DNA of 64,000 nt from an uncultured Desulfobulbia bacterium (GTDB lineage: Bacteria; Desulfobacterota; Desulfobulbia; Desulfobulbales; SURF-16): NCBI GenBank assembly GCA_964653055.1, contig CAZZCA010000010.1, positions 14,619-78,618 on the forward strand. The letters run 5' to 3'. Below, piece by piece: positions 1,144-22,651 of the stretch. Position 1 is the stretch's first letter. Each line of letters opens with the position of its first letter. A program made the translations under genes and the position numbers. Below the pieces are notes generated by a model. The model did not search any database. It was given only the letters and a program-made list of their open reading frames with translations, and had not been told where the DNA came from.

Positions 1144-3822
1144 CTATTTAATATTTTTTTTAATAATTCTGAACCTGACAAATTGTAATTCGTTTTTAAG
1201 CAACATCCTTAAATTCCTTAGCCAAAACACTCTTTGAATATTACGGCAATTTTCACTTGAATTATGGTCGCCGAGATATTGTTGCGGGTTAACAAATCCT
1301 TCCAGAAGCAGTTTATGCCTAACCCCATACATCATCCCATTCTGCATAGACAGAACAATTGGCCTCGTCAAATTTTTAGTCTCATACTGATCAAGACGCT
1401 CAACACAGTCATTATAGAAAAAATCAGCTTTTTCAAAAAAAACCTGTCGCAAATCATGATCGCAATACCTTGCGGCAAAAAGAAAAACATTACATTTACG
1501 CAAATCCTGAGCCGCCCATGTTTCGTTAGGAAATTCAAGCTTATCAGGCTTTGTCAAATATGGATATTCATTATCTGCCATCCACTTGGCATAATTGATA
1601 AGGCTCTTACAACCATAATGCCACATTGAATCAAATTTTCCTTCACCAGTTTTCACATCTAAATATTTCCCAAGCGCCTGCAAAAATATCGTGTACATCC
1701 ATCGATTTTCAGCATCGAGCAAATCTCGTTTAACAACATCATCTTGGGGATGAATACATCTGCGGACAAGTTCTTCCGCCAGATCTATATATTTATCAAG
1801 ACCAGAAAGCAAATACGCATCAAGCAATGTATTTAATGAGTTTCCACTGGCCCTGCCTGGTCCATCCAGACTGTATACTTTGTTCAATTGTACCAGCTCT
1901 CTCTTCCCCTTAGCATTTTTCAGGGCAGATTTTGCTTTGCGCATCAACATTATCATCCGGTTACATATGGTTTTGTCCATTTCGATATTACTATTAACAT
2001 ATGAGGCCAAACCATGGACTACCTCCCTTGATGACTCATTCCCGGTTAGAAAATAATGCAGGAGTAAGCCCGAAGAATAAGTATGCGAGAGTGACGGCCC
2101 CCCTCCATATGAGTTCAAATTCCTATCTGAAGAATGATTAAGAGAGAAACATCGGTGTGTTGCGGTCTGAGCATCCAAATAATGCTCGGTATGCCAGAAC
2201 AGTCCATGATTAAATTCGGGACGGTCCTCATTGGTATGGTAGATATCTATATCTTTTACATGAAGGCAAAGCTGGTCAGCCAACTTATACCAGCTCTTGT
2301 CACCACTCCTCAAAAATTGAAGCAATGTGCCTTTAACCCCATCATACTGATTATTATAATGAGAAACCATGGGGGAAGACCCTGAATGTCCAACAGCTTC
2401 ATGGTCAGCATACAGTTCTCCAAAATTGCGCCAGCCATATTCGTCGATGACCTCCCGCCTGTAAAAAAAGCTGTTATCTCCCTCTATGGCGGCATTAATC
2501 AATCCCTGTAGTGACCGGTTCGGGTCTTCCTTTTCCGTGACGAAATAAGGAATTGCTTTTGTTGACGCATACCATTCAGGAGTCGATCTAGGCAAAAGGG
2601 GACCATGAACCAATTCATTAATTGCCTCTTGGCTATTGATTTGTCCAAAATCAAGAAATATTGTATGAGTCTTTTGCTCTCCTCCCTGTAATTCATAGTC
2701 GTCATTAGATTGTTTTGGAAATAAGCGAATGCTGAGAGTATTATCATGCGCCTCCAGAGCCTTGGGAAAGTTCTGCCAGAAATTTTGGACAAAGCCGGTT
2801 ACAGAAATCGTCTTTTTTCCTATTGTCAGAACGGGATTAGCCCGCAACCCCTCATGGATTATTTTATTATCTTCATAGACCTTAAACCCCCGGAACGAAT
2901 GCCTTACTTCATTGTTACGATTTACATGATTCAAGCTCTGCCAATTCTCTCCACCGCTTGAATCCTGATAAATACATAAATTAGAAGATGACTCGATAGT
3001 CTCAGGAGAAATAAGGGGATTCCCATCATCATGAAAACGACATTCAATATCGGAAGAGTCACTTGCTGAATTAACAGCAATTTTTAAAGCAAGATCCTTA
3101 AAATAAATCGACCCAGGATCGCCCAAATCCCAGAGGCCACCCGGGTGACGGGCCGCACGTGGGTTAAGAACACTGAACTCAACCTTTACCAACGTTCGAT
3201 TTGCGAAAAAGTGGAGCCTGGAAGTAAATGATGCCAACTCCCCACCTTCTCCAGACCTGAAAACCCCTTCTAATTTCAATGTAGTCCGCAACGGACCTTT
3301 TGCTTCAAACTCTATTGCACTTACATAGGGGCTGTACTCAACTCCAGTGGCATCAACAATAATGGTATTACATTGGTGATGATTTAATATTTTCTTATCA
3401 CCAATTATTATTTGATCAAAAGGTGTAAAAACTTTGGTACTAACATGAAACGAAGCACCTCCAGTATCTATCAGGACATGCTCCACTGCCTCTTCAATTG
3501 TTATTTGCGGTTGCGGCTGCGGCTGCGGCTGCGGCTGCGGCTGCGAAATCAAAAAATCATCCGGGCCTAATGCAAGTTCCTGAGTAATATTTGCGTTTAT
3601 GTTAGCTTGAAAATCAAGGAGCAGCCATTTTATGCTCTTGTCCGGCCATGTTGCCAGCGGCTGCGTCTGAACAGGAATAATAGCCCCATTTTGATCGGCA
3701 AGTTGAAATCGCCCACCAGACATAACAAGGCCTTGAGGAAGCGGAATTCCAAAAGTTACCGGCTCATTAAGACGATCAATTCCGTTTAACTCTTCAAGAA
3801 CTATAGGAATACAGATCTGCAT
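1144..3822 (-). CDS. Large (892 aa) protein of unknown function; possibly a PcRGLX/YetA-like polysaccharide lyase/hydrolase-type protein (tentative)
   Basis: ATG at 3822, six nt after the upstream stop. No signal peptide. The N-terminus (RLNEPVTFGIPLPQG...ATWPDKSIKWLLLDF) and a C-terminal helical part (HYNNQYDG, LFWHTEHY, GGGPSLSHTYSSGLLLHYFLTG) remind me of three-domain exo-polysaccharide lyase-like proteins. This is recollection, not a search. Contains an internal (QP)6-7 linker. Confidence 0.45.
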   Translation of the reverse strand: MQICIPIVLEELNGIDRLNEPVTFGIPLPQGLVMSGGRFQLADQNGAIIPVQTQPLATWPDKSIKWLLLDFQANINANITQELALGPDDFLISQPQPQPQPQPQPQITIEEAVEHVLIDTGGASFHVSTKVFTPFDQIIIGDKKILNHHQCNTIIVDATGVEYSPYVSAIEFEAKGPLRTTLKLEGVFRSGEGGELASFTSRLHFFANRTLVKVEFSVLNPRAARHPGGLWDLGDPGSIYFKDLALKIAVNSASDSSDIECRFHDDGNPLISPETIESSSNLCIYQDSSGGENWQSLNHVNRNNEVRHSFRGFKVYEDNKIIHEGLRANPVLTIGKKTISVTGFVQNFWQNFPKALEAHDNTLSIRLFPKQSNDDYELQGGEQKTHTIFLDFGQINSQEAINELVHGPLLPRSTPEWYASTKAIPYFVTEKEDPNRSLQGLINAAIEGDNSFFYRREVIDEYGWRNFGELYADHEAVGHSGSSPMVSHYNNQYDGVKGTLLQFLRSGDKSWYKLADQLCLHVKDIDIYHTNEDRPEFNHGLFWHTEHYLDAQTATHRCFSLNHSSDRNLNSYGGGPSLSHTYSSGLLLHYFLTGNESSREVVHGLASYVNSNIEMDKTICNRMIMLMRKAKSALKNAKGKRELVQLNKVYSLDGPGRASGNSLNTLLDAYLLSGLDKYIDLAEELVRRCIHPQDDVVKRDLLDAENRWMYTIFLQALGKYLDVKTGEGKFDSMWHYGCKSLINYAKWMADNEYPYLTKPDKLEFPNETWAAQDLRKCNVFLFAARYCDHDLRQVFFEKADFFYNDCVERLDQYETKNLTRPIVLSMQNGMMYGVRHKLLLEGFVNPQQYLGDHNSSENCRNIQRVFWLRNLRMLLKNELQFVRFRIIKKNIK
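3506..3547. repeat. Hexanucleotide microsatellite (TGCGGC)n, 6 units plus a degenerate unit, coding for (QP)n inside the 892-aa ORF
   Basis: Read directly: tgcggt tgcggc tgcggc tgcggc tgcggc tgcggc tgcgaa. On the coding strand this is CAGCCG repeats giving SQPQPQPQPQPQPQI. Confidence 0.95.
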
Positions 3823-6205: not shown

Positions 6206-7510
6206 TTATGATTTATTTATTAATGGCCTGAGTTGAGTCTGTAAGGAGAAGTTCAATATAAGAAGATAATAGAGAAGCTCATAGGTAGCCAAATTAAGGA
6301 ACATGGAACAAACAAAATAGCCAGAAATACTACAAAATATAGAGTCCTGCAAAGATAGATAGAATGGATCAATATCCTCATTACAGCCTCCTCTAAGCTT
6401 AAAATTTCCAAAGAACATCTGCGCACAAATTAATAAATAGAGTATACCGGCAAAAAAACCAGACTCACTCGCAAACTGAACAAAAGTATTATGAGCAACA
6501 AACGGCTGGGTTGTTGCATAATCGGAATAGGCTTTAACAAAATTGCCAGGTCCAACACCAGTCAACGGATGATCAGCCATCATTTTCAAACCAACTAGCC
6601 AAGAATCAAATCTTGATTGAGCTGTGTCAATGTCTGACAGCCCACCACTTAAAGAATCAACTCTCTGCAAAAGATATCCCCCTCCTTGATATACAATAGC
6701 AATCAATAAAAGAAGGGGTATTGCCATATAAAAAACTTTTCTTTCTGACCTGACGGCAACAATAATCATCACAATAGATAAGCTTATCAAGCCACCAAGA
6801 GAGCCAGTTAAGAAAACCACATGCCATGCCAGAGGGATACAGGCCCAAAGAAAATATCTTATAATTTTATTATTAAAATAATCTCCAACAAAAAATAAAA
6901 ACGGAATCGCCGTTACAAACAACATAGCAAAAACATTCTGGTCAGAATAAATACCCCGCATTGCTGGCCCACCTAACCGAGCCCCATACACAATATACAT
7001 TTGACCGGAAAAATACATTTCATGAGCCCATACAATATAATATACAATAGTAAACAATATTATAGCGGTAAAACATTTAAGCTTTTTAATATCATCAATC
7101 AGAAAAATAGAGACAAAATAGAACAATAAAGCTTTGTTCATATTCGACATAATAGTTGCAGGATCAAAAGTACTTGCTGAATACAATTTAACATCACGCA
7201 ACGACTCATTACCATACGGATTAAACAAATAAGATATAACAATACATAACCACAAAATAGCCAAATATAAATTCTGACTGTTTTTTAGACTCGCAAAATC
7301 AATCCTTCCTGCTAAAATCTTTATAAAAAAACCTACAAATGTCCCCATAGCAATCAGTTTAGACGCATGAAAATAACCAAAAATCCAGCTCCATATACTT
7401 TGGGGATGCAATACATTAAACATGTAATACGCAACAACACCAATCCAGGGGAAAAATACCGCAAGAAATGTGGCACCATATGTAATAGAATAAAAAAATA
7501 ATTTAGTCAT
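6206..7510 (-). CDS. O-antigen ligase/polymerase-like (Wzy_C) integral membrane protein; exosortase-A-associated putative O-glycosylation ligase type
   Basis: 434 aa, with many hydrophobic helices throughout and a central loop. Its position beside the TIGR03087-type GT matches canonical XrtA loci. Confidence 0.7.
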   Translation of the reverse strand: MTKLFFYSITYGATFLAVFFPWIGVVAYYMFNVLHPQSIWSWIFGYFHASKLIAMGTFVGFFIKILAGRIDFASLKNSQNLYLAILWLCIVISYLFNPYGNESLRDVKLYSASTFDPATIMSNMNKALLFYFVSIFLIDDIKKLKCFTAIILFTIVYYIVWAHEMYFSGQMYIVYGARLGGPAMRGIYSDQNVFAMLFVTAIPFLFFVGDYFNNKIIRYFLWACIPLAWHVVFLTGSLGGLISLSIVMIIVAVRSERKVFYMAIPLLLLIAIVYQGGGYLLQRVDSLSGGLSDIDTAQSRFDSWLVGLKMMADHPLTGVGPGNFVKAYSDYATTQPFVAHNTFVQFASESGFFAGILYLLICAQMFFGNFKLRGGCNEDIDPFYLSLQDSIFCSISGYFVCSMFLNLATYELLYYLLILNFSLQTQLRPLINKS

Positions 7511-7547: not shown

Positions 7548-8495
7548 CTACTTAACTCCAATCATGTGAAGAGGGTGAAATAACTCTCCGACAATCGGCA
7601 CATCAATAAAGAGTAACACCAGAACCAGCAAAAAACAAAAAGAGGAATAAACCACAAGGCCTCGCTGCTTATAAAGTCTCTCAGGGTACTGAGCGGGACT
7701 ATCCTCCCAGAAGGCAAGGCGCATATACATCGGGATAAAACCAGCCAGAAAGGGCACACTTAAGATGAGCTCAATACGGTAGCGAATAAGAAAAACCCCA
7801 AAAAACAGACTAAAGGCTGCAGCATAATAAACAATGCTCAAGAGAAGCCGGTATTCATTATAGTAAGAAAATGAAGATCTGTATTTCCTGGCTGTTTCCG
7901 GGTCACCTATTCTTTTAAATTCAGCATAACGCTTTATGGCCATAAAAAAAGCCCCAATCATCCAGTAGGCAAGGATAAACGACAATGTCGGAGGATATGA
8001 CTGATTGATCGCAAACCAGCCTAGAAAAAGCCTGAGGGGATTATTTACAGACTCCGATAAAACATCAAGATAAGGTAAATCTTTCAGACGGATCGGAGGA
8101 ATATTGTACAGCTGCCCCATCACCAAAAGAGAAGCAAGACTCCAGAAAAAATAAAGATTAAGCTGCCAACCTACAACTAGACCCAATATAGCCAGAATCA
8201 CCCATTCCACATAAGCGATTTTCAGATTGACATCTCCGGAAGGAATTGGCCTTTTCTTCTTAACCGGATGAAGGGCATCTTTTGACGCGTCTAATATCTC
8301 ATTAATGGTATAATTACTCGAAGCAATTAGGCATGTCGCAATCAAAGCAATTACGATATCTGGAATTATTGACCAGGAAAAAACATCAGGGGAGTCAAAA
8401 CAGGCGAGGACAACTCCCGGAATCATAAAAACATTCTTAAACCAATTATCTGGCCGGGCTATCTTTATGTATGGGGCTATTCGCTTATAATTCAT
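7548..8495 (-). CDS. UbiA-superfamily prenyltransferase, polyprenyl-phosphate phosphoribosyltransferase-like (Rv3806c/DPPR-synthase-like subgroup)
   Basis: 315 aa with about 8-9 TM helices. ARPDNWFKNVF near the N-terminus. First Asp-rich motif region NYTINEILDASKDALHPVKKKRPIPSG (NDxxDxxxD-like, with E in place of the first D). Confidence 0.6.
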   Translation of the reverse strand: MNYKRIAPYIKIARPDNWFKNVFMIPGVVLACFDSPDVFSWSIIPDIVIALIATCLIASSNYTINEILDASKDALHPVKKKRPIPSGDVNLKIAYVEWVILAILGLVVGWQLNLYFFWSLASLLVMGQLYNIPPIRLKDLPYLDVLSESVNNPLRLFLGWFAINQSYPPTLSFILAYWMIGAFFMAIKRYAEFKRIGDPETARKYRSSFSYYNEYRLLLSIVYYAAAFSLFFGVFLIRYRIELILSVPFLAGFIPMYMRLAFWEDSPAQYPERLYKQRGLVVYSSFCFLLVLVLLFIDVPIVGELFHPLHMIGVK

Positions 8496-8508
8496 CCATT
8501 ATGTCTCT

Positions 8509-9219
8509 TTAATTTGTTATGACTGCGGCAATGCCATATAGCTCTCTCATGCTGCGGATATAAATGCACCCTGGGCATAATCCTTCCTGAAATGGGCCGA
8601 TAATCACAGGCTTCATGCCCGCATATTTAGCCCCTAACCCGTCCACCTCCACCCTGTCTCCAACATAAACAATTTCATCAGGCCGCAACCCCATTTGCTG
8701 AGCCGCCAGCTCAAACCCGTTACTATCAGGTTTAAAGCCTTCCACATCTTTATCACTTGCAGACATAATGATGGAGAAATAAGAACTTAATCCAAGAGCC
8801 TGTATTTTGGTATGGGCAGGATAGTCAGAAAAAACTCCTAACTTAACACCTTTTTCCTGTAATTTGCCAAGAACAACAGACACACCCTTTCTTCTGAAAA
8901 ATTTGATCAGGCAAAGAGGCCTTCTCTCAAACCATTCCTGAACAACAGACTCAACATCGCTAAGAGATTCTCCTGTTTTAATGACTGTTAAAGCAATTTG
9001 ACCAATTTGCTCTTTACTGTGCCTTAACTCTTCTTGAGCCCTACGATAATTATATATTATTTTCAGGGTCTTAAGAAATTTTATCGGACGGCAAATGAGA
9101 GTTGCCAACCAGAAACACATTGTCAGTCGAAGTGGAACTTGATGATAAAGTGTACCATCAACATCAAAAAGAATACCCTTAAAACCTGAAAACAAACTCG
9201 TTTCAGCATCTAAACCCAT
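8509..9219 (-). CDS. HAD-superfamily hydrolase (phosphatase)
   Basis: 236 aa. Motif I is ILFDVDGTLYH. C-terminal motif YVGDRVEVDGLGA (HAD motif IV-like). Confidence 0.75.
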   Translation of the reverse strand: MGLDAETSLFSGFKGILFDVDGTLYHQVPLRLTMCFWLATLICRPIKFLKTLKIIYNYRRAQEELRHSKEQIGQIALTVIKTGESLSDVESVVQEWFERRPLCLIKFFRRKGVSVVLGKLQEKGVKLGVFSDYPAHTKIQALGLSSYFSIIMSASDKDVEGFKPDSNGFELAAQQMGLRPDEIVYVGDRVEVDGLGAKYAGMKPVIIGPFQEGLCPGCIYIRSMRELYGIAAVITN

Positions 9220-9222
9220 AAT

Positions 9223-10146
9223 TTATTTGATCACCGAAATGGTTCGGGAAACAAAATAAACCTGCAACAACAGCAACAGATGTGGAACTTGAGAGGTCTC
9301 AATTTTAGCTCTAATCTTAAACAAAAATAAAATGCTGGGAAGACAATACAGAAAGGCAACAAAACCCATTGGGGTATTATAATACGCAGACCCTGCAAAT
9401 AAAATAGGCAAAAAAGCTCCAAAGTAAACAGGAATCAAGAGACTGGGCAGTTCCTTAAAGGAAAAGCCATGGCTCAGCAACCCTGAAAAATTACTTTTTC
9501 CTCGCCATAATTCTTTCAAAAAAAACTCTCTGACAGTGGCGGCCTCCCCCAAATGAACTACTTGAATCTTGGCATCTGAGACAACCCTGCCATATTTTTT
9601 AATCCTATAGCACAGATCAACATCTTCACAGGTAATCAAGTCCTCATTAAAACCATCCACCTTCAAAAACTTCTCTCTACGCACAAACAAATTCATTGAC
9701 TCCAGCCATTCTACATCTTGAACAGCCTTTTCCTTTTTCCTCACAAGATACCAAGCCCTCTGAACCCATGTTGCGTTCTCCGGAATATTAGGGGGCGCAC
9801 CCCAGGCGACAATATCCATTTCTCCAAAATAAATTGATGCCTTAACAAGCATATCACTTGTTACCAGACAATCTGCATCAATAAACACCAGAATCTCTCC
9901 CTGGGCTCGAGCAGCTCCAATGTTCCTTAAACCAGAGACATTGGCTTCCTCGTCCTGCATCACAACTGCTCCTTTTCCCTCAGCAATTTCATAGGTTTTA
10001 TCAGTTGAGCCATTATCTATTACCAATACCTCAAGAAGGTGTGGAGGATAATCAAGCGTAGAAATTGATTCAAGGCAAGACGGCAGATAGTTCTCTTCAT
10101 TATAGGCTGGAATAATAATTGATATAAGGGGTAAATTATCTGCCAT
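9223..10146 (-). CDS. Glycosyltransferase family 2 with C-terminal membrane helices
   Basis: 307 aa. ISIIIPAYNEENYL, VIDNGSTDKT, and the DxD motif as VFIDADC. Hydrophobic C-terminal third. Confidence 0.85.
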   Translation of the reverse strand: MADNLPLISIIIPAYNEENYLPSCLESISTLDYPPHLLEVLVIDNGSTDKTYEIAEGKGAVVMQDEEANVSGLRNIGAARAQGEILVFIDADCLVTSDMLVKASIYFGEMDIVAWGAPPNIPENATWVQRAWYLVRKKEKAVQDVEWLESMNLFVRREKFLKVDGFNEDLITCEDVDLCYRIKKYGRVVSDAKIQVVHLGEAATVREFFLKELWRGKSNFSGLLSHGFSFKELPSLLIPVYFGAFLPILFAGSAYYNTPMGFVAFLYCLPSILFLFKIRAKIETSQVPHLLLLLQVYFVSRTISVIK

Positions 10147-11912
10147 TATGAAGCCACCTTGTAAACCATTAGATGAGGGCCAAAACGTTGCCCATTATTT
10201 TTCACTTCATAAAGTTTAACAAACTTCTTGTTTCTTGCCAGATTATCAATAAACTTGATTCTGCTAGACTTCACATCACCCCCTGTCCCGCGTTCATTAA
10301 AACCATCAAAAGAACCGGCATTCAATATTAAATATTGAACACCTTGATTTCTAATGTCCTCCAGTACAGGGTAAGATTCATCCCAATTAATGAACCTTAA
10401 ATCAAATCTTGGTCTATCAAGAGTTGCATAATACTTTTTCTTTAATTGCCAATATTTCGCCTTTCCTGGAGCGATATCATTTAACAAAATGACCATTTTA
10501 TGGATATTTTTACTACTATTTAACAATTGAACATCAAATTGACTTTGATGTTCAGGAGATCCTTCCATCATAATGGCGGATTCAGACTCAATATTTTTCT
10601 CAATCCAATTCTTAGTTAAAATCCTTGTATCAACATTGGATAGTCGACTCACAAAAGAGTAGGATGTCGCACCGGGATGCCAAATCATCATTATCATCAA
10701 ACATACCAGAATAAGTCTGGCCATATTCTTAGGAAGACACCTGTCTCTTAAGAAGAGGTACAACTGACTTGCACCGTATCCAGCAACAAGGAAAACAAGA
10801 GGCAACAAGGGCAGCAGATAACGCGAGAATACCAAATGCGATTGCGCCTGTGAGATAGCAAAATAATAAGGAATAAAAAACATTGCCAATAGCAAGGCAA
10901 TTTTTGATCTTGAAAAAAAAGCCCACCCCATTGAACAAAATGCCAAAACAAACATAGGGGTTCCGAGTTCAAACCTCAGTTGCTGAAAATAAAACAAGGC
11001 AGGTGACAGGCCAGCCACTCTATCTTGAGCGCTAATCCCTGGTAATTTGTCAACGAATGTTTTTGAAACAACAAAAAGGCCCTTGATGGTTTTACCCAGA
11101 TGACAGAAAGTATTAAGATACCCAGGCTCTACAGCAAGGGACACAACAATAAAAACTCCCAGCACAACCAATACCTTCTTCAAGACAACGGCCAGAGGGT
11201 TCCCTGCCTTAACACTGCCTATTATTACCGCAGCCAGCAAAGGAATTAAAATTACAATCCCCGGCAATTTAGTGGCAAATGCCAGTCCTCCCCAGAAACC
11301 AGCCCAAATGTAATTTCTGTTATTATCTTCTCTAGTAATCCTAAAGATATACAACCATGACAATAGCAGCAATAATACCAGAAGACCATCAACTGTCGCA
11401 TAATGGCTGGTCTCAACATGCAACCCTGAAAATGCCAGTAAAATTACTCCCAATAACCCACATTCCTTACCACCAATCCCTGAAGCGATTTTATAAAGAA
11501 CAATACAGGAAGCAATGCCTATACAGGCCGAAGCGGCTCTGGCGCCCAAGTAAAATGACCCTTCATGGGCCACGAAGAAACCGGCAAATTCCTCCGGACT
11601 GGCAACAACTCCCCCAACAAGCAAAAAGACAAAGACCATGGCCAATTCCAAAAAAATAATAAAATAAAGGCCACCTTTTCCAGTTCTGGTAAAATCAAAA
11701 TCACCTGCTGCCAACCGAAGCGCTCGATGCATTTCAAAAGGCTCATCCACATGTAAAAGTTCCGGCAAACCAAAACCTATGGCATAAAACCGTAACAATG
11801 CGGCTATCAACAAAACAAAAGGAACAGCCAGGCCCCAGGAATGGTTAGTAAATTTTATTTTTTTACGACCTGTCACTTCTCTATTCCATAAATTCCTGAT
11901 ACCACAATTCAA
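10146..11912 (-). CDS. GT-C fold, lipid-carrier-dependent glycosyltransferase (GT39/GT83, PMT/ArnT-like) with a C-terminal soluble domain
   Basis: 588 aa with more than 10 TM helices. First-loop motif LLHVDEPFEM resembles the PMT/ArnT DE loop. About 170 aa of non-membrane C-terminus. The track start is a TTG overlapping the upstream asnB-like gene by 32 nt; a GTG at 11876 (5 nt after that stop) is an alternative start. Confidence 0.7.
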   Translation of the reverse strand: MNCGIRNLWNREVTGRKKIKFTNHSWGLAVPFVLLIAALLRFYAIGFGLPELLHVDEPFEMHRALRLAAGDFDFTRTGKGGLYFIIFLELAMVFVFLLVGGVVASPEEFAGFFVAHEGSFYLGARAASACIGIASCIVLYKIASGIGGKECGLLGVILLAFSGLHVETSHYATVDGLLVLLLLLSWLYIFRITREDNNRNYIWAGFWGGLAFATKLPGIVILIPLLAAVIIGSVKAGNPLAVVLKKVLVVLGVFIVVSLAVEPGYLNTFCHLGKTIKGLFVVSKTFVDKLPGISAQDRVAGLSPALFYFQQLRFELGTPMFVLAFCSMGWAFFSRSKIALLLAMFFIPYYFAISQAQSHLVFSRYLLPLLPLVFLVAGYGASQLYLFLRDRCLPKNMARLILVCLMIMMIWHPGATSYSFVSRLSNVDTRILTKNWIEKNIESESAIMMEGSPEHQSQFDVQLLNSSKNIHKMVILLNDIAPGKAKYWQLKKKYYATLDRPRFDLRFINWDESYPVLEDIRNQGVQYLILNAGSFDGFNERGTGGDVKSSRIKFIDNLARNKKFVKLYEVKNNGQRFGPHLMVYKVAS

Positions 11913-13761
11913 ACATTAAAATACTCCAGAGAATTGTAGCATAATTTCTTTGCCCACTCTGATGCTCACCCCAGATTGAACGAAGTATTTTCATATTGAA
12001 AAAATGATTGACACCAGCACTTTTCCCAAAGAGAAAATCACCTGCCATCTTCCGCAACTCGCCCCTCAACCAATCTGCCAGGGGAACAGAAAACCCCATC
12101 TTTTTCCTATACAGAATTTCATCCGGCAGAATTCCCTGACAAGATCTCTTCAAGATATACTTCTTCTCACCATGACGAAATTTTAATTCTGCAGGAATAG
12201 ATGCCGCATACTCAATAACCTTATGATCAAGAACTGGTGCCCGAACCTCTAAAGAATTTGCCATACTCATTCGGTCCACCTTAACCAGAATATCTCCGGG
12301 GAGATAAGTCTTTAAATCAGTATAAAGAATTTTCGACAGATGACAGTCAGTATCAGCCTTCTGATAATAATGCTCCGTGACAGAGAAAGAGTCATAGTCC
12401 CCTATCTGCTTTTTGGTATCATCATTTAACAATAAACGCCATATCCGATCATCAAACTCACTATTAGTCAGGTAATAACCATAATCAGCTTCAAATCCCA
12501 ACGAATGTATCAGGGTATATCCCTTCCGAAACAATGATTTATTCCCTTTGGCCAACATACCCGCCAGAAAAGGGAAAAACTGCCTCCTGATTACTAACGG
12601 AATTCTCTTGCGAAGGTTATTTTCTATATCGTCTAAATGATATTTCTCGTACCCTGCAAAATTCTCGTCACCGCCATCTCCGGACAAGGCTACTACAACC
12701 TTTTGGCGTGCAAGTTTTGACACATAATATGTCGGCACTGATGAGGCATCGGCAAATGGTTCATCAAAATGATAAACTAGCTTCTTCAAAACTTGCTCAG
12801 CATTTTGATTTACAGACAATTCATGATGATCGGTGTGATATTTTTCTGCTACAAGACGGGCAAATTCCACTTCATCATATTTTTTACTGTCAAACCCAAT
12901 TGAACAAGTTGTTACAGGAGTATTGCTCTGCCTCGCCATTAAGGCCACCACAAGACTTGAATCTATCCCGCCACTGAGAAAAGCCCCAAGAGGAACATCA
13001 CTTACCCGCCGCATCCGAACACTATCTGCTAATAATCCTATCAGGTTCTCTGCAACAACAGACTCATGATCAGCTACTTGATTGGCAAACGAAACATCCC
13101 AATACTCACGGGTTGATATTCCTTCAGGGTTACAGAGCAGGTAGTGGCCAGGCATCAACTTATTAATACCACTATAAATCGTCTTTGGGTCAGGAACATA
13201 AAGATATTTGAAATAATCAGAAAACGCCTCAAAATTAATCTGCTTCTTGATATCCGCGTCTTGTAAGATACTCTTAATTTCAGAAGCAAAAAGAAATGTT
13301 TTCCCATCAAAAAAATAATAAAGGGGCTTCTTCCCGATTCGATCCCGAGCCAGGAAAAGAGTCTTTTTAGCTTCATCCCATATGGCAAAGGCAAACATTC
13401 CCCGCAAATGCTGCAAACAGCCTGTACCAAACTCCTGATAAAGACTTAAAAGAACTTCTGTATCGCAATCACTGAGAAATGTATACCCCCGGCCTTCAAG
13501 ATCTTTGCGCAATGCCGGGAAATTATAGATCTCACCATTATAAACAATCCATACTTTCCCATCCTTGCTAGACATCGGCTGATGCCCCAATTCCGACAAG
13601 TCAAGAATACTAAGTCGCCGATGACCCAATCCAATTGAACCATCCACATAAACACCAGCATCATCAGGCCCTCTGTGCTTAATTACATCGCACATTTTTT
13701 CAACAAGACCAGGAGAGACCGAACCACCATATAAATTATATTTGCCTGCGATCCCACACAT
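11881..13761 (-). CDS. Asparagine synthase (glutamine-hydrolysing) family amidotransferase, EPS-locus paralogue 1
   Basis: 626 aa. MCGIAG N-terminal nucleophile Cys. PP-loop FLSGGIDSS. Confidence 0.9.
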   Translation of the reverse strand: MCGIAGKYNLYGGSVSPGLVEKMCDVIKHRGPDDAGVYVDGSIGLGHRRLSILDLSELGHQPMSSKDGKVWIVYNGEIYNFPALRKDLEGRGYTFLSDCDTEVLLSLYQEFGTGCLQHLRGMFAFAIWDEAKKTLFLARDRIGKKPLYYFFDGKTFLFASEIKSILQDADIKKQINFEAFSDYFKYLYVPDPKTIYSGINKLMPGHYLLCNPEGISTREYWDVSFANQVADHESVVAENLIGLLADSVRMRRVSDVPLGAFLSGGIDSSLVVALMARQSNTPVTTCSIGFDSKKYDEVEFARLVAEKYHTDHHELSVNQNAEQVLKKLVYHFDEPFADASSVPTYYVSKLARQKVVVALSGDGGDENFAGYEKYHLDDIENNLRKRIPLVIRRQFFPFLAGMLAKGNKSLFRKGYTLIHSLGFEADYGYYLTNSEFDDRIWRLLLNDDTKKQIGDYDSFSVTEHYYQKADTDCHLSKILYTDLKTYLPGDILVKVDRMSMANSLEVRAPVLDHKVIEYAASIPAELKFRHGEKKYILKRSCQGILPDEILYRKKMGFSVPLADWLRGELRKMAGDFLFGKSAGVNHFFNMKILRSIWGEHQSGQRNYATILWSILMFELWYQEFME

Positions 13762-14213
13762 TATGATTCAAGCCTATTTTTAAATGTATAAGAACGGTTA
13801 ATTAAAAAATTCAAAATAAAAATCAAGGCTATAGCTACTAACTGGGCAACAAGATACCACAAACCTACAACCTGAAATAACAACCAGAATAAACCGATAT
13901 TAAGAAAAAAAGTAATCGCTGTTACCGTAATATAACGCAGGAAAAACACGCGGTGACTTCCTTTGACGCTAAACACCCAATAATGTTGCAACATATAATT
14001 CCCCAGGCATGCGCCAATAAAACCTATTGCCGAAGAAACGGTAGGTGGGCAATTTGTCAACTCCACCAAAAATGACAAAATAACAAGATGAACAACAGTA
14101 GCAATTACACCACTGACAAAATATCGACAAAATTGAGCTGATAAAAATCTTTGGCAGCCCAATATAGCAATCAACTCTTTATGCCAATACTCAGAAGAAA
14201 ACTCCACTTTCAT
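13761..14213 (-). CDS. GtrA-family membrane protein (lipid-linked sugar translocation/assistance)
   Basis: 150 aa with 4 TM helices. C-terminal FLINRSYTFKN is typical of GtrA-like proteins. ATGA-type overlaps with both neighbours. Confidence 0.75.
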   Translation of the reverse strand: MKVEFSSEYWHKELIAILGCQRFLSAQFCRYFVSGVIATVVHLVILSFLVELTNCPPTVSSAIGFIGACLGNYMLQHYWVFSVKGSHRVFFLRYITVTAITFFLNIGLFWLLFQVVGLWYLVAQLVAIALIFILNFLINRSYTFKNRLES

Positions 14214-15079
14214 TTATCCTTAAGCCCTATAAACACCTTACACCTAACAACTACTGGCTTCACCCTCACCTGATATTGAAGCTGGAACTCTGCTACAATT
14301 TTTTGATGTATTCTGAAAAAGAACTCATGCCATTCAGGGAACTCAATCCGTTTACCAGTCAATTCATAATTATTTTCCAACAACACATCGCCAGCTATTG
14401 TTTCAAATAAATTTATTTTGTATTCACTTAGTTCATTACGCCACTTAGTAATTATAGATGAATCTAATTTTTTTGAAGTATTAATATTAAACTTATTTGT
14501 ACGCTCAACATAACTATCATTCTCATAATATCGTAACATTGAATCCTCAAACTCTTCTCCAAGAAACTCACATACTCTCCTTAATTCTCTCTCTGGGTAT
14601 AAAACGAGATCTTCATAATATACCAAGCAACATGATTCATTATTTTTAGAATAAAATTGTTTTTGTTTCTCAATTTCCTCTTTCCATTTTTCTGCCGCAT
14701 AATGAATATTTGCTGTGCCAAATTTCGCCTTCAATTTAGAAAGCGCAACAGCCCGACCGTCTCTGATAATCAAAACATATTGAGCCATTGGGAAATTAAT
14801 CAACAAATCATCTAAATAATATTGTAAAGCTGGATCTTTTAATCCCCACCTTATCAGTGCATTATTTTTTATCGCATCATCTAACAAGTCATTTTTTATG
14901 GGTGTAATTTCACCTATTAAACAATTAATAACCTCATCATTATCATTATTTCTAGCCAATGAAGAAATGACCTTGGGGGATTCATTTTTCATGTAAATCT
15001 TAGAGTGAGAGGCTAACATTCTGCCAAGAAGAGTAGTTCCTGATCTCTGAGCACCTATTAAAAAAATTGGGTCTATCAT
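14210..15079 (-). CDS. PAPS-dependent sulfotransferase
   Basis: 289 aa. 5'-PSB loop IGAQRSGTTLLGRML. 3'-PB-like IIRDGRAVALS. Confidence 0.8.
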   Translation of the reverse strand: MIDPIFLIGAQRSGTTLLGRMLASHSKIYMKNESPKVISSLARNNDNDEVINCLIGEITPIKNDLLDDAIKNNALIRWGLKDPALQYYLDDLLINFPMAQYVLIIRDGRAVALSKLKAKFGTANIHYAAEKWKEEIEKQKQFYSKNNESCCLVYYEDLVLYPERELRRVCEFLGEEFEDSMLRYYENDSYVERTNKFNINTSKKLDSSIITKWRNELSEYKINLFETIAGDVLLENNYELTGKRIEFPEWHEFFFRIHQKIVAEFQLQYQVRVKPVVVRCKVFIGLKDK

Positions 15080-17088: not shown

Positions 17089-18051
17089 CTACTCGATGGT
17101 CTCATCGATTAAATACTGAGGCTCTTCCGGCATATGGGTAAAAATGATAATTTCCGCCACCAACCCAATGAAGAAAGTCTGCAATCCTACCAATAGAAAC
17201 AATATGCCACCTAAAAATAACGGCCTGCCCGCCAAGCTCACATCAAAATAAAGGCGTTGAATTACCGTCACCAGAGAAATTACCAGGCCAATGAAACCAA
17301 TTCCAAACCCAAGTAACCCGAAAAAGCGCAATGGCTTCTGTGTGAACTTAATAAGGAAGAAAATTGTCAATATGTCCAGTAAGCGCCTCAAGTATACCCC
17401 AGGGCCATAAACTCGAAGATGAATATTCTCCGACGCTTGCTTAAGTGCCAACTCCTTAACACGGAATCCTCTATTATGGGCCAGTAACGGGAAAAACCTA
17501 TGCATATCTCCGTATAGATATATCTTTTCCAGAACTCTACGCCGTAGCAATCTGACCCCACAGGATATATCTCTTAAAGAGATTCCTATTAATCTTGAAA
17601 CAAGGCCATGGAAAACTTTAGCCTGAACCCGATTAAGGATATTATCCTGTCGGGGGTAGCGACAACCTACAATTAAATCAACCTCGAAACTAAATTCAGT
17701 AAACATCTTCCCAATCTCTTCCGGTTCAACTTGAAAATATGCCGGCAGGGTAAGAATTATTTCACCTGAAGACTCAGCAAAGGCTACTGACAATGCTTTT
17801 GCCTCACCATGAGGTTTATTAAAGGATACCACCTTAACCACATCAGTGTTTGCAGCTTGAAGCTCCGCCAAATCTATGCGAGCAGCAGGGAAATCACCAT
17901 CAATAACAAAAATGAACTCATTGTGAAGGTTTAAAGATGCAAGCTCTTTCCTGAAACGCTGAAAGAGAGACTTTAAGTTGTCATGATAATCACTGATCGG
18001 CACTAAAATAGAAACATCAAAAGTCATCTCTCTTTGAATTCGATTTTCCAT
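17089..18051 (-). CDS. GT2-like, membrane-anchored paralogue of the upstream GtrB/ArnC-type enzyme with a degenerate DxD motif
   Basis: 320 aa. Aligns by eye to the 18072-18947 product (DNILNRV / DNILRCI, GDMHRFFP / SEMHRFIP). It has IILTLPAYFQVEPEEI where the partner has IIITMDGDLQNDPEDI. Two C-terminal TM helices. Confidence 0.65.
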   Translation of the reverse strand: MENRIQREMTFDVSILVPISDYHDNLKSLFQRFRKELASLNLHNEFIFVIDGDFPAARIDLAELQAANTDVVKVVSFNKPHGEAKALSVAFAESSGEIILTLPAYFQVEPEEIGKMFTEFSFEVDLIVGCRYPRQDNILNRVQAKVFHGLVSRLIGISLRDISCGVRLLRRRVLEKIYLYGDMHRFFPLLAHNRGFRVKELALKQASENIHLRVYGPGVYLRRLLDILTIFFLIKFTQKPLRFFGLLGFGIGFIGLVISLVTVIQRLYFDVSLAGRPLFLGGILFLLVGLQTFFIGLVAEIIIFTHMPEEPQYLIDETIE

Positions 18052-18071
18052 TATAACCTCATCAATAATAA

Positions 18072-18947
18072 TCAGGAGTGACGAGTCGCCAGCTCACACA
18101 CAAGCCCATAGCCAAACAAGACAAAGCTATTAAAAATAAATAAAAGCATAACCCCGGGCCAGACAATCCCGTCAAAAGACAAATAAGAATTACCACACAC
18201 AATAATTAAGGGAATCAATAATGAAAATGCTGCCATTGACCCAAACCAGGCCATCGGCCGCTCAGAAAAATGTAAAACCAGCCTTAAAGTAAAAAGGTCA
18301 ATTAACACCTTCCATATCCTGGAAAAACCATATTTACTCTCCCCTCGAGTTCGAGGATGGTGCCTGACGACAAGCTCCCCAACCCGCCCCCCCCGCAGGA
18401 AAGCAAAAGCAGGAATAAAACGATGCATCTCAGAATAAAGTCGAACTTTTTTTAATGTATCAGCATGATATACCTTCAAAGAACAGCCATTATCATGAAT
18501 ATGTACACCTGTAATAAAACGAAGCAAACGGTTAGCAACCATTGAGGGAATACAGCGCAAGATATTATCTTTGCGCTTCTTGCGCCAACCGCTGACTACC
18601 TCAAAACCTTCCTCCATCTTCTTAATCAAAGCCGGGATATCCTCCGGATCGTTCTGCAAATCTCCATCCATAGTTATAATAATCTTACCATTTGCCTGAT
18701 CAATACCAGCCTGCATGGCCTGAGTTTGACCAAAATTCCTGCGGAACTTAATGATTTTAAGCCTGGGCCATTTCTCCTTCCCCTTACATAACTCAGCAAA
18801 TGTCCCATCTGAACTACCATCATCGATAGCCAGGATCTCATAATCGCCCATCATATGATTCATTGTCTCGGCAACCCTCTTAAGCATCAGGGCAACATTT
18901 TCTTCCTCATTATAAAAAGGAATAACAAGACTAAAATCTAATCCCAT
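18072..18947 (-). CDS. Polyprenyl-phosphate glycosyltransferase (GT2; GtrB/ArnC/DPM1-like)
   Basis: 291 aa. LVIPFYNEEENV, AIDDGSSDGT, MDGDLQNDPEDI, and C-terminal TM helices. Confidence 0.85.
   Translation of the reverse strand: MGLDFSLVIPFYNEEENVALMLKRVAETMNHMMGDYEILAIDDGSSDGTFAELCKGKEKWPRLKIIKFRRNFGQTQAMQAGIDQANGKIIITMDGDLQNDPEDIPALIKKMEEGFEVVSGWRKKRKDNILRCIPSMVANRLLRFITGVHIHDNGCSLKVYHADTLKKVRLYSEMHRFIPAFAFLRGGRVGELVVRHHPRTRGESKYGFSRIWKVLIDLFTLRLVLHFSERPMAWFGSMAAFSLLIPLIIVCGNSYLSFDGIVWPGVMLLFIFNSFVLFGYGLVCELATRHS
18387..18394. repeat. C8 homopolymer (G8 on the coding strand) inside the GtrB-like GT2 gene
   Basis: Read directly: aacccg cccccccc gcagg. Encodes LRGGRVG. Confidence 0.95.
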
Positions 18948-20826: not shown

Positions 20827-21894
20827 CTAATTTCTTCCTGGAAGCAATCGAGTCCGCAACTGAAAAATATTAGACAAACTTTGCGGAATACAGGTTTTAC
20901 AAGGAACAAAAGGTCTTTCCCCTTGAGCTAATTTCATCCGTAGGTCTTGGTACCTTTCATTATTCCAAATGTCTGAAAACTTTTCCTGGAAAACATTTCC
21001 CATTCGTCCCTCTGCCAGCTGCCAGGGAATAATTGGACAAGGCCTTACACTTCCATCAGCATCAATCCAGGACGAAAACCAAGGGAAATAACATTTTTTG
21101 TGATTAGGTATGAATTGATTCTCTGGTAACATTTTATTGAATAAGAGGTCAAAATCCCTCAACCAAATATTAATATTTGTGGCAATCCCTTTTGCCTTGG
21201 CAACTTTGTCAGCCTCTAACAGGATTCTTTTTAAATTTTGTTCAGACAAATTACCGACAAGATCTTTCTTTCTGTCTTCACGGCCGAAATACTCAAGATA
21301 CTGGATATAAACGCCTTGTACCTTAAGCTCATAAGCCAATTTAATAGTATCTACCAATTGGCCCAAATTATCTTTCTGAAGAGCATAATTAAATCGCAGT
21401 GAAGGTTTATTATACTCATTCTGTCTTTTCCTCTGATTTAATCTTTTAATATTTTCTCGTAATGTGCCGTATAAATCTTTCCCCCTGATTTTCGCATAAG
21501 TATCAGGCTCAGACGAATCTATTGAAATTTTAATCTGATCAATACCGCTATCGAAAATCCTGTCAATTTTGTTTCCAACCAAAGTAAAATTAGAGGCACA
21601 ATTCACCGCTGCCCCTTTTAGCTTTGAATACTCAATCATTTCAAATATTTCTGGATTTAAAAAAGGTTCTCCCAAGCCACTAACATTAATATTTTCAGGT
21701 AGCACCTCATCAATAATTTTCTTGAAGTTCTCAAACTTCATTGCTGTGGTCTTGGGGAAAATAATATCTCGATGACATGTTGCACAACGCAAATTACAGG
21801 CATTTGTACTTTCTACTTGGAGGTGAATAGGAAGGCCGGCAACCCTTCTTCCTCTTCTCACTATATTGCAAAGAGATATAATTTTTCTTTTCAT
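20827..21894 (-). CDS. Radical SAM enzyme with a C-terminal SPASM/twitch-like Cys cluster
   Basis: 355 aa. CxxxCxxC as ACNLRCATCHR. C-terminal cysteines KKCYFPW...VRPCPI...VPCKTCIP. Confidence 0.8.
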   Translation of the reverse strand: MKRKIISLCNIVRRGRRVAGLPIHLQVESTNACNLRCATCHRDIIFPKTTAMKFENFKKIIDEVLPENINVSGLGEPFLNPEIFEMIEYSKLKGAAVNCASNFTLVGNKIDRIFDSGIDQIKISIDSSEPDTYAKIRGKDLYGTLRENIKRLNQRKRQNEYNKPSLRFNYALQKDNLGQLVDTIKLAYELKVQGVYIQYLEYFGREDRKKDLVGNLSEQNLKRILLEADKVAKAKGIATNINIWLRDFDLLFNKMLPENQFIPNHKKCYFPWFSSWIDADGSVRPCPIIPWQLAEGRMGNVFQEKFSDIWNNERYQDLRMKLAQGERPFVPCKTCIPQSLSNIFQLRTRLLPGRN

Positions 21895-21898
21895 TTTA

Positions 21899-22651
21899 CT
21901 AAGGAGCCTTACGAGCGATAATTATAAGAGATTCAAAAAAAGTTTTACGAACTTTCCACAACAATGTCCCCAACCCAAGATACTCGCATAGCCATGTTGT
22001 AAAACCAAAATGAACTGGCACCATAAAAGTATTAATGACATGCCTAAGCAAGTGATGACAAAAGCCTGATTTCACCCAAAACCATCCAATTACATGCTGG
22101 ACATCAACTACCTCTAATCCAGCATCTTTTAACAATCCGGTTACTCTCCGTCTTGTAGTAACAAAACTATGTGTGTAGTCCATCTCATAAAAAAATTCTT
22201 TTATAGTCAAATAATTAGGAACAACGAGACAAGCAACACCATCTGGCTTCAAAATACGCACTGACTCATCAACAAATAACATCGCTTTTTCATGATCAGG
22301 CAAATGCTCCAAGATCATACTCGCATATAAGACGTCACAACTTTGATCTGGCAAAGGAAATGGAGGGACAAAGGCATCAATAACCTCAAAACCCTTTTTC
22401 TGGAGATTATTACGCAAGTCTACAGATGGTTCTAAACCTAAATAATTAATTTCACATTTCTTACATTCATCCGCCAAATGACCCAAGCCAGGCCCTACAT
22501 CAACCAATAGGTCAATATCTTCCACAAAAGATCTAAGATACTGAAGGATATTTCGACAGAAATTAGTCTTATTTTTGTAATAAAATTTTGTCGTTTGATC
22601 TAAAGACGAGGTTTTTTCAATTTGCCGAGAATTTTCACATTCCATGATCAA
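21899..22651 (-). CDS. Class I SAM-dependent methyltransferase
   Basis: 250 aa. Motif I is LLVDVGPGLGHL. The acidic loop LGLEPS follows. The track start is TTG; an ATG lies two codons in. Confidence 0.8.
   Translation of the reverse strand: MIMECENSRQIEKTSSLDQTTKFYYKNKTNFCRNILQYLRSFVEDIDLLVDVGPGLGHLADECKKCEINYLGLEPSVDLRNNLQKKGFEVIDAFVPPFPLPDQSCDVLYASMILEHLPDHEKAMLFVDESVRILKPDGVACLVVPNYLTIKEFFYEMDYTHSFVTTRRRVTGLLKDAGLEVVDVQHVIGWFWVKSGFCHHLLRHVINTFMVPVHFGFTTWLCEYLGLGTLLWKVRKTFFESLIIIARKAP

Follow-up and report, generated by a model that had tools for sequence, protein, structure and literature searches.

We analysed a stretch of 64,000 nt from an uncultured Desulfobulbia bacterium (assembly GCA_964653055.1, contig CAZZCA010000010.1, positions 14,619 to 78,618), referred to below as the window. 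Between positions 7548 and 14213 it carries six genes that an initial annotation had described as a lipid-carrier glycosylation module, with two further genes attached, embedded in an exosortase-type exopolysaccharide (EPS) locus. Our results suggest that two adjacent genes among them, for a UbiA-family synthase and a HAD phosphatase, most likely produce a lipid-linked ribose for decorating the exported polysaccharide outside the cell, and that they probably belong to an accessory donor-synthesis cassette inserted into a conserved exosortase/PEP-CTERM-type Wzx/Wzy EPS locus. In order of transcription, the six genes are:

14213-13761, minus strand: GtrA-family protein (Pfam GtrA_DPMS_TM, 79.9 bits)
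13761-11881, minus strand: AsnB-like amidotransferase (Pfam Asn_synthase, 369.8 bits, and GATase; TIGR03108, 729 bits with a cut-off of 816.9)
11912-10146, minus strand: glycosyltransferase of the C class (GT-C), 588 aa, TTG start (Pfam PMT_2, 58.9 bits, and PMT)
10146-9223, minus strand: membrane-anchored family 2 glycosyltransferase (GT2), 307 aa (Pfam Glycos_transf_2, 85 bits)
9219-8509, minus strand: HAD-IA phosphatase, 236 aa (Pfam HAD, 65.5 bits, and Hydrolase/HAD_2; TIGR01549 cut-off passed)
8495-7548, minus strand: UbiA homologue, 315 aa (Pfam UbiA, 102.9 bits)

All six are open reading frames (ORFs) on the minus strand in the ORF list, and the domain initially assigned to each was recovered with Pfam; both UbiA motifs quoted at that stage are present. 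The genes are packed as described, with the GT-C stop and the GT2 start sharing one base (TAATG) and gaps of 3 nt from the GT2 stop to the HAD start and of 13 nt from the HAD stop to the UbiA start. The direction of reading had to be corrected: the AsnB-like and GtrA genes had been said to follow the other four, but because the genes lie on the minus strand, they are upstream in transcription order. The same-strand gene run around the cassette exceeds 40 kb. A promoter scan returned promoter-like sites at chance level only, and in a terminator scan nearly all terminator-like sites, including the highest-ranked, fell within coding sequence, none being convincing internally. These scans are consistent with one long operon.

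The UbiA homologue had been likened to the mycobacterial phosphoribosyltransferase Rv3806c rather than to quinone or haem prenyltransferases, and our comparisons bear this out. Among NCBIfam models, its top scores were with three for decaprenyl-phosphate phosphoribosyltransferase (DPPRS; 97.5, 88.7 and 74.8 bits) and with PRK08238, which describes HAD-UbiA fusions (89.8 bits). No other type of model exceeded 48.9 bits, and chlorophyll synthase, haem O synthase and UbiA reached 30.8-43.6 bits; every one of these matches was under its curated cut-off. The best match in the PDB was Rv3806c itself (8J8J, E=3.4e-13). For a neighbour-joining (NJ) tree we used as references the DPPRS of Tsukamurella, a bona fide Mycobacteriales enzyme encoded in a canonical glf-GlfT2-PAP2-DPPRS-GT-C-DprE1 locus (L106; comparison loci are cited by such numbers), the DPPRS-annotated proteins of Legionella and Lactococcus, the PRK08238 fusion protein and UbiA, MenA and CyoE of E. 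coli. The window family grouped with the DPPRS-type proteins, apart from the three E. coli enzymes, in 97 of 100 bootstraps, and its identity to the latter was 14-18%. Together with homologues from Rhizobium and Paracoccus plasmids it formed a separate sister clade to canonical DPPRS. Thus, neither the tree nor the profile scores placed the protein with quinone, haem or chlorophyll prenyltransferases.

The substrate contacts known from the Rv3806c structure point the same way. Residues K28, Y70, K87 and K191 bind the 5'-phosphate and pyrophosphate of phosphoribosyl pyrophosphate (PRPP) and the lipid phosphate, and other UbiA enzymes do not share the sites that bind phosphoribose (PMC10994848). 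In the window family the equivalents of Rv3806c R22, K28, Y70, N73, D77, K87, R90, Y138, K143 and K191 are invariant, K20, Y62, K79 and K188 of the window protein corresponding to K28, Y70, K87 and K191. The E. coli UbiA, MenA and CyoE proteins differ at these four positions, the change in MenA at K87 being a conservative one to Arg. We conclude that the product of 7548-8495 is likely an enzyme of the polyprenyl-phosphate phosphoribosyltransferase (PPPRS) type.

This family is widespread. We found more than 5,000 homologues, the top 120 of which have 58-80% identity and are spread over Proteobacteria, Nitrospirota, Bacteroidota and the candidate phyla radiation (CPR), and at least 578 GTDB species genomes contain a member; across phyla, the clade is 53-80% identical. 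Gene neighbours were surveyed in 80 GTDB loci by our own ORF calling, and since this is crude in high-GC loci, the co-occurrence counts are approximate lower bounds. A HAD gene was adjacent to the UbiA gene in 28 of the 80 loci and no more than four genes away in 31, and a GT-C-like polytopic protein was encoded within four genes in 49. When the count was restricted to the 60 loci in which two or more genes flanked UbiA on both sides, 27 had the HAD, 45 the GT-C-like protein and 22 both. As a separate observation, four gammaproteobacterial metagenome-assembled genomes (L014, L015, L021 and L040) have a solitary gene of the UbiA family, flanked by ImuA/ImuB-like and DnaE2-like genes and lacking HAD, GT-C and glycan genes in its vicinity.

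The phosphatase had been proposed as a partner of the UbiA enzyme, and its linkage proved to be conserved in the closest relatives and beyond. Its translation contains the motifs DVDGT and GDRxxxD. An orthologous HAD gene lies directly upstream of the UbiA gene in L001, L002, L004, L005, L009, L011, L012, L088 and L098, and in plasmid pRL10 of Rhizobium johnstonii a HAD-IA gene lies directly downstream, in the operon UbiA-HAD-GtrA. Phosphatases of other kinds take this place elsewhere. A HAD-IB gene (PF12710; TIGR01490 at 114 bits) directly follows UbiA in 21 other loci. The PRK08238 protein encoded on a plasmid of Salipiger (614 bits) unites a HAD-IB-like domain and the synthase in one polypeptide, arranged HAD-UbiA as in ORF15 of Citrobacter youngae (PMC11127046), and GtrA, DprE1-like and DprE2-like genes come next. 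On the Lactococcus EPS plasmid pLLF27D (L107), the genes for a hypothetical 533-aa protein, DPPRS, HAD-IB and GtrA follow one another, and the canonical Tsukamurella locus has a PAP2 phosphatase in the order PAP2-DPPRS-GT-C-DprE1. The phosphatase slot beside the synthase has thus been filled repeatedly from separate families, namely PAP2 (in Mycobacteriales), HAD-IB and HAD-IA. Such recurrence fits a reaction that yields a 5-phosphorylated intermediate, and phosphoribosyl transfer is, to our knowledge, the only reaction of the UbiA superfamily that does so. The HAD protein is therefore likely, as judged from family and gene linkage, to be a 5-phosphatase acting on polyprenyl-phosphate-ribose-5-phosphate.

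Transferases and transporters accompany the synthase in further lineages. A different PMT_2 GT-C (cluster 3) directly follows UbiA in L004, L005, L008, L009 and many Planctomycetota loci, and in Legionella the DPPRS gene adjoins one for a GT39 GT-C. GtrA genes stand directly beside UbiA-type synthase genes in four unrelated plasmids, from Rhizobium (pRL10), Paracoccus, Salipiger and Lactococcus.

To separate the cassette from its surroundings, the setting has to be considered, for which the following features of the window are needed:

1144-3822, minus strand: PcRGLX-like (rhamnogalacturonan-lyase-like) protein, 892 aa, no NCBIfam family match
6206-7510, minus strand: Wzy_C/exosortase-associated O-antigen-ligase-like protein, WzyC below (Pfam Wzy_C, 61.9 bits; TIGR03097, 105.5 bits, under the cut-off)
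14210-15079, minus strand: sulfotransferase (Pfam Sulfotransfer_3, 98 bits)
18051-17089, minus strand: ArnC_a, ArnC/GtrB-like protein (NF007986 (ArnC), under the cut-off)
18947-18072, minus strand: ArnC_b, ArnC/GtrB-like protein (NF007986 (ArnC), under the cut-off)
27852-28706, minus strand: exosortase (TIGR02602 cut-off passed)
28875-29492: PEP-CTERM protein

The setting is an exosortase/PEP-CTERM-type EPS locus. Exosortase, EpsI and the PEP-CTERM protein are encoded at 27.2-29.5 kb, and PrsT, an export protein, a chain-length determinant, a tyrosine kinase and a TIGR03013 priming phosphoglycosyl transferase at 39.6-48.2 kb; a TIGR03006 deacetylase, a TIGR03019 FemAB protein and TIGR03087/03088 family 4 glycosyltransferases (GT4s) surround the cassette. 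Model cut-offs were passed for the TIGR02602 exosortase, TIGR02914 EpsI, TIGR03013, TIGR03006, TIGR03019, TIGR03087 and TIGR02917 (PrsT). The exosortase scored under both the XrtA model TIGR03109 (165.6 against 208) and the XrtD model (203.6 against 400), so that its subtype is not settled by the models; the neighbouring genes belong to XrtA-system families. The GC content is 36-42% in the first 28 kb, the glycan-assembly half that holds the cassette, versus 48-55% elsewhere. This division between a low-GC glycan-assembly half (1-28000) and the regulatory/export half and beyond (30000-64000) resembles the low-GC variable regions of O-antigen clusters.

Two related loci found through GT2, L093 (a 2.3-Mb contig) and L094 (a Planctomycetota genome), allowed us to distinguish core from accessory genes. 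Both have the order Deacetylase-FemAB-AsnB-GT2-WzyC-stp1-stp2-PcRGLX-like-Wzx, with 38-67% identity to the window proteins, and between Deacetylase and Wzx neither contains HAD, UbiA, GT-C, GtrA or sulfotransferase genes. The window has the order Deacetylase-FemAB-(sulfotransferase-GtrA)-AsnB-(GT-C)-GT2-(HAD-UbiA)-WzyC-stp1-stp2-PcRGLX-like, in which the genes in parentheses are accessory. WzyC, which directly follows GT2 in L093 and L094, lies immediately downstream of UbiA in the window, after a gap of 37 nt. The accessory genes are thus the sulfotransferase and GtrA genes, the GT-C gene and the HAD and UbiA genes. GtrA is found where HAD-UbiA is, in the window and L098, and is missing from the module-less L093 and L094. 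The order FemAB-sulfotransferase-GtrA-AsnB is common to the window and L098 (sulfotransferase and GtrA at L098:1911-3232), and the sulfotransferase, whose end overlaps the GtrA start by 4 nt, is likewise missing from L093 and L094. Its presence suggests that the EPS may also be sulfated.

The initial annotation had treated UbiA, HAD, GT2 and GT-C as a single module outside the canonical XrtA gene set. This holds for HAD and UbiA, which L093 and L094 lack, but not for GT2, since XrtA-type loci without UbiA and HAD keep it. GT2 homologues with 55-56% identity occupy the same AsnB-GT2-WzyC slot in L093 and L094, and the gene also occurs in L095; we therefore regard GT2 as a core EPS gene, a status that accounts for its high conservation (50-69% identity across phyla). 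The protein has DAD and ED motifs and two C-terminal hydrophobic segments. The AsnB-like protein, with homologues at 64-82% identity in loci with and without HAD-UbiA, is also a core XrtA-system gene outside the module. We had considered GT2 as a module member because GT2 and UbiA share at least 13 contigs and because in L008, whose UbiA is 77% identical to that of the window, GT2 and HAD form one 558-aa ORF (L008:4230-5906) with a GT2 domain, a transmembrane (TM) region and a HAD domain; this candidate was rejected in view of L093 and L094. The L008 ORF may be a real fusion or a loss of the stop codon. It is weak evidence for membership because the GT2 stop and HAD start of the window lie in the same reading frame, 3 nt apart.

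The GT-C protein crosses the membrane some nine or more times, and its C-terminal region is soluble. A sequence search against the PDB gave no match. An AlphaFold (AF2) model (pLDDT 82, pTM 0.84) had STT3/OST, ArnT, ALG9/12, PglB and Pmt4 as its top Foldseek matches (E 1e-9 to 1e-5, TM ~0.5), which confirms the GT-C fold (GT-C_A type) at the level of the model. The extra soluble C-terminal domain that had been noted is also seen in the model (residues ~425-588), where it is predicted to be alpha/beta, with alternating helices and five strands, similar to ArnT/STT3-type periplasmic domains. D56, E57, R125 and K215 are invariant among the homologues. These are rare: 14 were found among 5.8 billion proteins, and a metagenome scan added 22 mostly short contigs. 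Since only 14 homologues are known, association statistics for the GT-C rest on few loci. The sole orthologue in the same position, with 61% identity, is in L088 (AsnB-GT-C-GT2-HAD-UbiA-WzyC).

Within the window and the adjoining stretch L102, which includes 10 kb past its left edge (~74 kb in all), five GT-C hidden Markov models and TM counting revealed no second GT-C. The window thus holds three candidate lipid-phosphate-sugar synthases (ArnC_a, ArnC_b and UbiA with HAD), one GtrA and one GT-C. The ArnC pair (17089-18947; NF007986 scores of 114.9 and 168.1 bits) has two C-terminal TM segments in each protein. Because this GT-C is the sole one in ~74 kb while its homologues follow ArnC-like genes, its donor is ambiguous and could be lipid-phosphate-ribose, an ArnC-type donor or both. 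As an observation on the pair itself, ArnC_a and ArnC_b are a conserved cassette, elsewhere followed directly by a GT-C gene and often then by the XrtA-system deacetylase. Its conservation suggests that the 'core' exosortase EPS system has a branch for a lipid-linked sugar.

As had been noted, no DprE1/DprE2-like protein was found in the window or L102 (phmmer, E<0.01, queried with the DprE1-like and DprE2-like proteins of Salipiger and the N-terminal part of DprE1 from Tsukamurella). For this reason ribofuranose (Ribf) is the default and most likely sugar on the evidence of gene content. Xylofuranose (Xylf) may take its place, given three generic short-chain dehydrogenase/reductase (SDR) nucleotide-sugar enzymes encoded at 33-38 kb.

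The genes had been put forward as a candidate for an uncharacterised system. However, a system of this kind has been characterised by Kelly et al. (2024, PNAS), who described three-component systems for alpha-Ribf, Xylf and arabinofuranose (Araf) side chains (PMC11127046). In Citrobacter youngae O1/O2, ORF15, a fusion of a HAD (PRP) and a UbiA (PPPRS) domain, makes polyprenyl-phosphate-Ribf from PRPP, ORF14 is the transporter (flippase) and ORF12 is a GT-C of family GT136 that attaches alpha-Ribf to the O antigen on the periplasmic side; the action of an SDR epimerase yields Xylf, and that of DprE1/E2 homologues Araf (PMC11127046). Among the variants in the supplement of that study are systems in which PRP is encoded separately, others with GtrA-like ('SMR') transporters and some with several GT-Cs (PMC11127046). 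GtrA, GT-C and HAD with UbiA, all accessory in the window, are the parts that a three-component system requires.

By protein superfamily, the window and C. youngae share a UbiA-type PRPP:polyprenyl-phosphate phosphoribosyltransferase, a HAD, a small membrane transporter and a GT-C whose C-terminal domain is periplasmic. In both cases the genes are accessory to a glycan assembly locus, and where an epimerase is absent, Ribf is the expected sugar. There are also differences, judged for ORF15 and ORF12 from their published descriptions. The window HAD is encoded separately, belongs to subfamily IA and has no specific similarity to the fused PRP-type domain, and the synthase belongs to a distinct clade with N-E in place of N-D. 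ORF12 is described as EpsG-like with a beta-sandwich, Ig-like carbohydrate-binding module, whereas the window GT-C is of the PMT_2 type with a predicted alpha/beta C-terminal domain and, not being EpsG-like, is not a GT136 member. The host pathway is Wzx/Wzy exosortase-type EPS in the window, in contrast to an ABC-transporter O antigen in C. youngae. Rhizobium CCGE531, a candidate of Kelly et al., was not among the 60 plasmid matches of our search, and a phage collection gave one weak, unannotated match.

Mycobacteria make decaprenyl-phosphate-arabinose with Rv3806c, Rv3807c and DprE1/DprE2, followed by Rv3789 and the Emb/Aft GT-Cs. The window resembles this scheme in that Rv3806c is the closest solved structure, with most substrate-binding residues kept, and in having a GtrA-family (Rv3789-like) protein and a GT-C transferase. 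It differs in its phosphatase, which is a HAD and not a PAP2 (Rv3807c), in the lack of DprE1/DprE2, so that arabinose is not expected, in a GT-C unrelated to Emb/Aft beyond the fold, and presumably in the lipid, which would be undecaprenyl phosphate. With the GtrA/GtrB/GtrC and ArnC/ArnD/ArnT systems the window shares GtrA, two GtrB/ArnC-like GT2s, a polysaccharide-deacetylase-family protein and an ArnT-like GT-C; by family, the Gtr/Arn-type set of GtrB/ArnC-like GT2s with C-terminal TM segments, GtrA and GT-C is complete. In those systems the donor is made from a nucleotide sugar via the GT2, whereas UbiA and HAD would form a donor pathway of their own that starts from PRPP. Finally, the cytoplasmic gPRT-PRP ribofuranosyltransferases (Kelly et al. 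2022) are soluble and add beta-Ribf straight to the glycan (PMC11127046, PMC11294581). The proposed window system would share with them PRPP as ribose source and removal of the 5-phosphate by a HAD; unlike it, they have no UbiA domain, lipid-linked donor, flippase or GT-C.

With sequence families, conserved residues, gene linkage and the GT-C fold established, we infer the enzymatic steps, the lipid, the sugar, the flippase role and the acceptor as follows. The UbiA-family enzyme would transfer ribose-5-phosphate from PRPP to a polyprenyl phosphate, probably undecaprenyl phosphate, at the cytoplasmic face of the membrane, and the HAD-IA protein would strip the 5-phosphate to give polyprenyl-phosphate-ribofuranose. 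The GtrA-type protein (13761-14213) would then help the lipid to reach the periplasmic face; we give this translocation role an even chance. A GT-C would put the pentofuranose on the exported polysaccharide as a side chain, after polymerisation. Either the GT-C of 10146-11912 takes both donors or the ribosyltransferase is encoded elsewhere in the genome, and we assign the transfer to the window GT-C, possibly shared with the ArnC donors, only tentatively, at slightly less than even chances. Because the EPS is primed by a separate TIGR03013 phosphoglycosyl transferase, the UbiA product is expected to be a decoration donor and not a primer. Judging from the locus context and the polysaccharide precedent, a polysaccharide is a more likely acceptor than PEP-CTERM proteins.

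Several findings weigh against this reading, and some of them favour others. The UbiA homologue scores under all curated DPPRS cut-offs (97.5 against 234 bits), has only 24-30% identity to canonical DPPRS and PRK08238 proteins, and shows throughout its family the substitutions D74 to Glu, Q135 to Gly and Y157 to Asn, two of which (Q135 and Y157) affect ribose/5'-phosphate contacts of Rv3806c. These points, together with the separate clade and the members that stand alone in non-glycan contexts, for instance beside ImuB/DnaE2, would suit a true prenyltransferase acting on a non-PRPP acceptor, with the HAD acting on an unrelated phosphorylated intermediate. We give this explanation a very slim chance, since prenyltransferase models score far lower (at most 48.9 bits), the residues K28, Y70, K87 and K191 that distinguish the phosphoribosyltransferase from prenyltransferases are invariant, and the family is linked to phosphatases, GtrA and GT-Cs. 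Gene linkage and the phosphatase also leave gaps in the proposed pathway. The window HAD has no significant similarity to the HAD domain of the PRK08238 fusion beyond generic HAD motifs (direct comparison), and the PRP structure 7SHG was not among the 22 PDB matches (E<0.001) listed for it; neither HAD nor GT-C was near UbiA in 10 of the 60 well-covered loci, and GtrA was within four genes of UbiA in none of the 80 GTDB loci by our own gene calls, the exception to its rarity being a GtrA-like ORF that overlaps the gene after UbiA in L016. GT2 might instead belong with HAD and UbiA in a trio, extending polyprenyl-phosphate-ribose at the cytoplasmic face to a lipid-linked disaccharide donor or otherwise depending on the HAD. 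The three genes are contiguous in the window, L002, L009, L088 and L098 and nearly so in L004, where a small methyltransferase-like gene separates GT2 from HAD; to this may be added the single ORF of L008, the unusual conservation of both the GT2 and UbiA families (50-80% identity across phyla) and the Salmonella T1 antigen system, in which a PRP-containing ribosyltransferase has a GT-A-fold protein as its partner (PMC11294581). However, retention of GT2 in the HAD/UbiA-less L093 and L094, and its occurrence in L095, indicate that its function needs neither partner, the in-frame L008 fusion could stem from nothing more than a lost stop codon or a misassembly, and such a GT2 is missing from most UbiA-family loci (12 loci). 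We consider the trio very unlikely.

The GT-C is where our preferred reading, a ribose donor cassette serving the polysaccharide, is most open to challenge. It had been taken as a fixed member of the module and proved to be separable from HAD-UbiA: L098, which has the closest UbiA relative (80% identity), reads FemAB-sulfotransferase-GtrA-AsnB-GT2-HAD-UbiA-WzyC without it, and outside the window/L088 lineage the GT-C family never occurs with UbiA. Its nearest relatives outside L088 directly follow ArnC_b/ArnC_a orthologues in L092 (identities of 53% for ArnC_b, 33% for ArnC_a and 35% for the GT-C) and L095 (51%, 44% and 22%), and more distant ones follow single ArnC-like genes in L108, L109, L117 and L118. 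In L123 a 45-residue GT-C remnant, 64% identical to the window GT-C, lies between ArnC_a and the deacetylase, a slot that is empty in the window. The module-less XrtA loci also encode a GT-C-like protein after ArnC-like genes, a pair in L094 and a single one in L093. It is thus quite possible, if somewhat short of an even chance, that GT-C and GtrA serve the ArnC pair as a classical Gtr/Arn system and that their proximity to HAD-UbiA is an accident of rearrangement; a nucleotide sugar would serve to make an undecaprenyl-phosphate-linked hexose or aminosugar, which would be flipped and then handed on in the periplasm, and lipid-phosphate-ribose, if made, would go to a transferase encoded elsewhere. 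Against this, the GT-C gene is two genes from HAD-UbiA in the window and L088 and ~5 kb from the ArnC pair, ArnC-GT-C cassettes elsewhere are without GtrA, which tracks HAD-UbiA (window and L098 versus L093 and L094), no other GT-C within ~74 kb could use the UbiA product, and the PMT_2 GT-Cs directly after UbiA in other lineages show that PMT_2 types can be partners of ribosyl lipids. If the UbiA clade were not a simple ribosyl-donor synthase and the window GT-C were committed to ArnC-type donors, a lipid-phosphate-pentose could be used by an enzyme other than a GT-C. One candidate consumer would be the Wzy_C/'O-glycosylation ligase' encoded 37 nt downstream, the synthase may use a different phosphosugar donor, and the outcome could be glycosylated PEP-CTERM proteins or a new EPS lipid anchor; we regard this chain of assumptions as highly improbable. 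Proteins as acceptors also figure in a simpler form, in which PEP-CTERM or other envelope proteins are O-glycosylated with pentofuranose, as in the arabinosylation of Pseudomonas aeruginosa pilin by TfpW (cited in PMC11127046). The PMT_2-family and STT3-like folds include protein glycosyltransferases and a PEP-CTERM protein gene is at hand (28875-29492). Yet we identified no acceptor-peptide motif such as WWDYG, the cassette lies among GT4, Wzy and Wzx genes in the half of the locus that assembles the glycan and is variable and low in GC, the family is widespread in EPS-type contexts, many with no exosortase in view, and the characterised non-mycobacterial example modifies a polysaccharide (PMC11127046), which makes protein acceptors unlikely.

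Taken together, the pentofuranose side-chain system proposed here is of a kind known since 2024, and the window is a divergent environmental example of it rather than a new mechanistic category. Its distinct points are a synthase from a separate, very widespread and unnamed clade, a separate HAD-IA phosphatase, a GT-C that is not GT136 and may be shared, and a host that is an exosortase-type EPS locus of uncultured bacteria. If the reading is correct, the pathway described in 2024 reaches from the O antigens of pathogens to exosortase-type EPS of uncultured environmental bacteria, including Desulfobacterota, Planctomycetota, Acidobacteriota, Nitrospirota and Gammaproteobacteria. A further outcome would be the definition of a large and well-conserved clade of PPPRS-like enzymes, in which a UbiA-clade gene with a HAD gene could serve as a simple genomic marker for ribofuranose or related pentofuranoses in EPS of unknown structure, and the 5-phosphatase step would have been supplied by three or more unrelated kinds of phosphatase (PAP2, HAD-IB and HAD-IA). 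Plasmids pRL10 (L006) and pLLF27D (L107) carry compact split versions in cultured hosts and would offer tractable experimental models.

Further observations were made in the loci studied. In L089-L091 a GT-C relative with 30% identity is part of a sulfotransferase-rich EPS locus with no UbiA within 10 kb, and an adjacent GMC-type FAD oxidoreductase and SDR are a possible oxidase/reductase epimerase pair. The PcRGLX-like protein, kept at 45-53% identity in L004, L008, L093 and L094, closes the AsnB-GT2-WzyC-stp1-stp2 core block. Inside the EPS locus of the window, between a second AsnB paralogue and Wzx, lie genes for a radical SAM/SPASM protein (20827-21894, minus strand) and a 250-aa protein without family match (21899-22651, minus strand). 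The locus runs past the window start (L102:12749-15218; window 1 to ~1070, minus strand), where a CapK-like gene crosses the edge and is accompanied by genes for a 325-aa GT2 paralogue, a second Wzx-like flippase, a hexapeptide acyltransferase and a further deacetylase.

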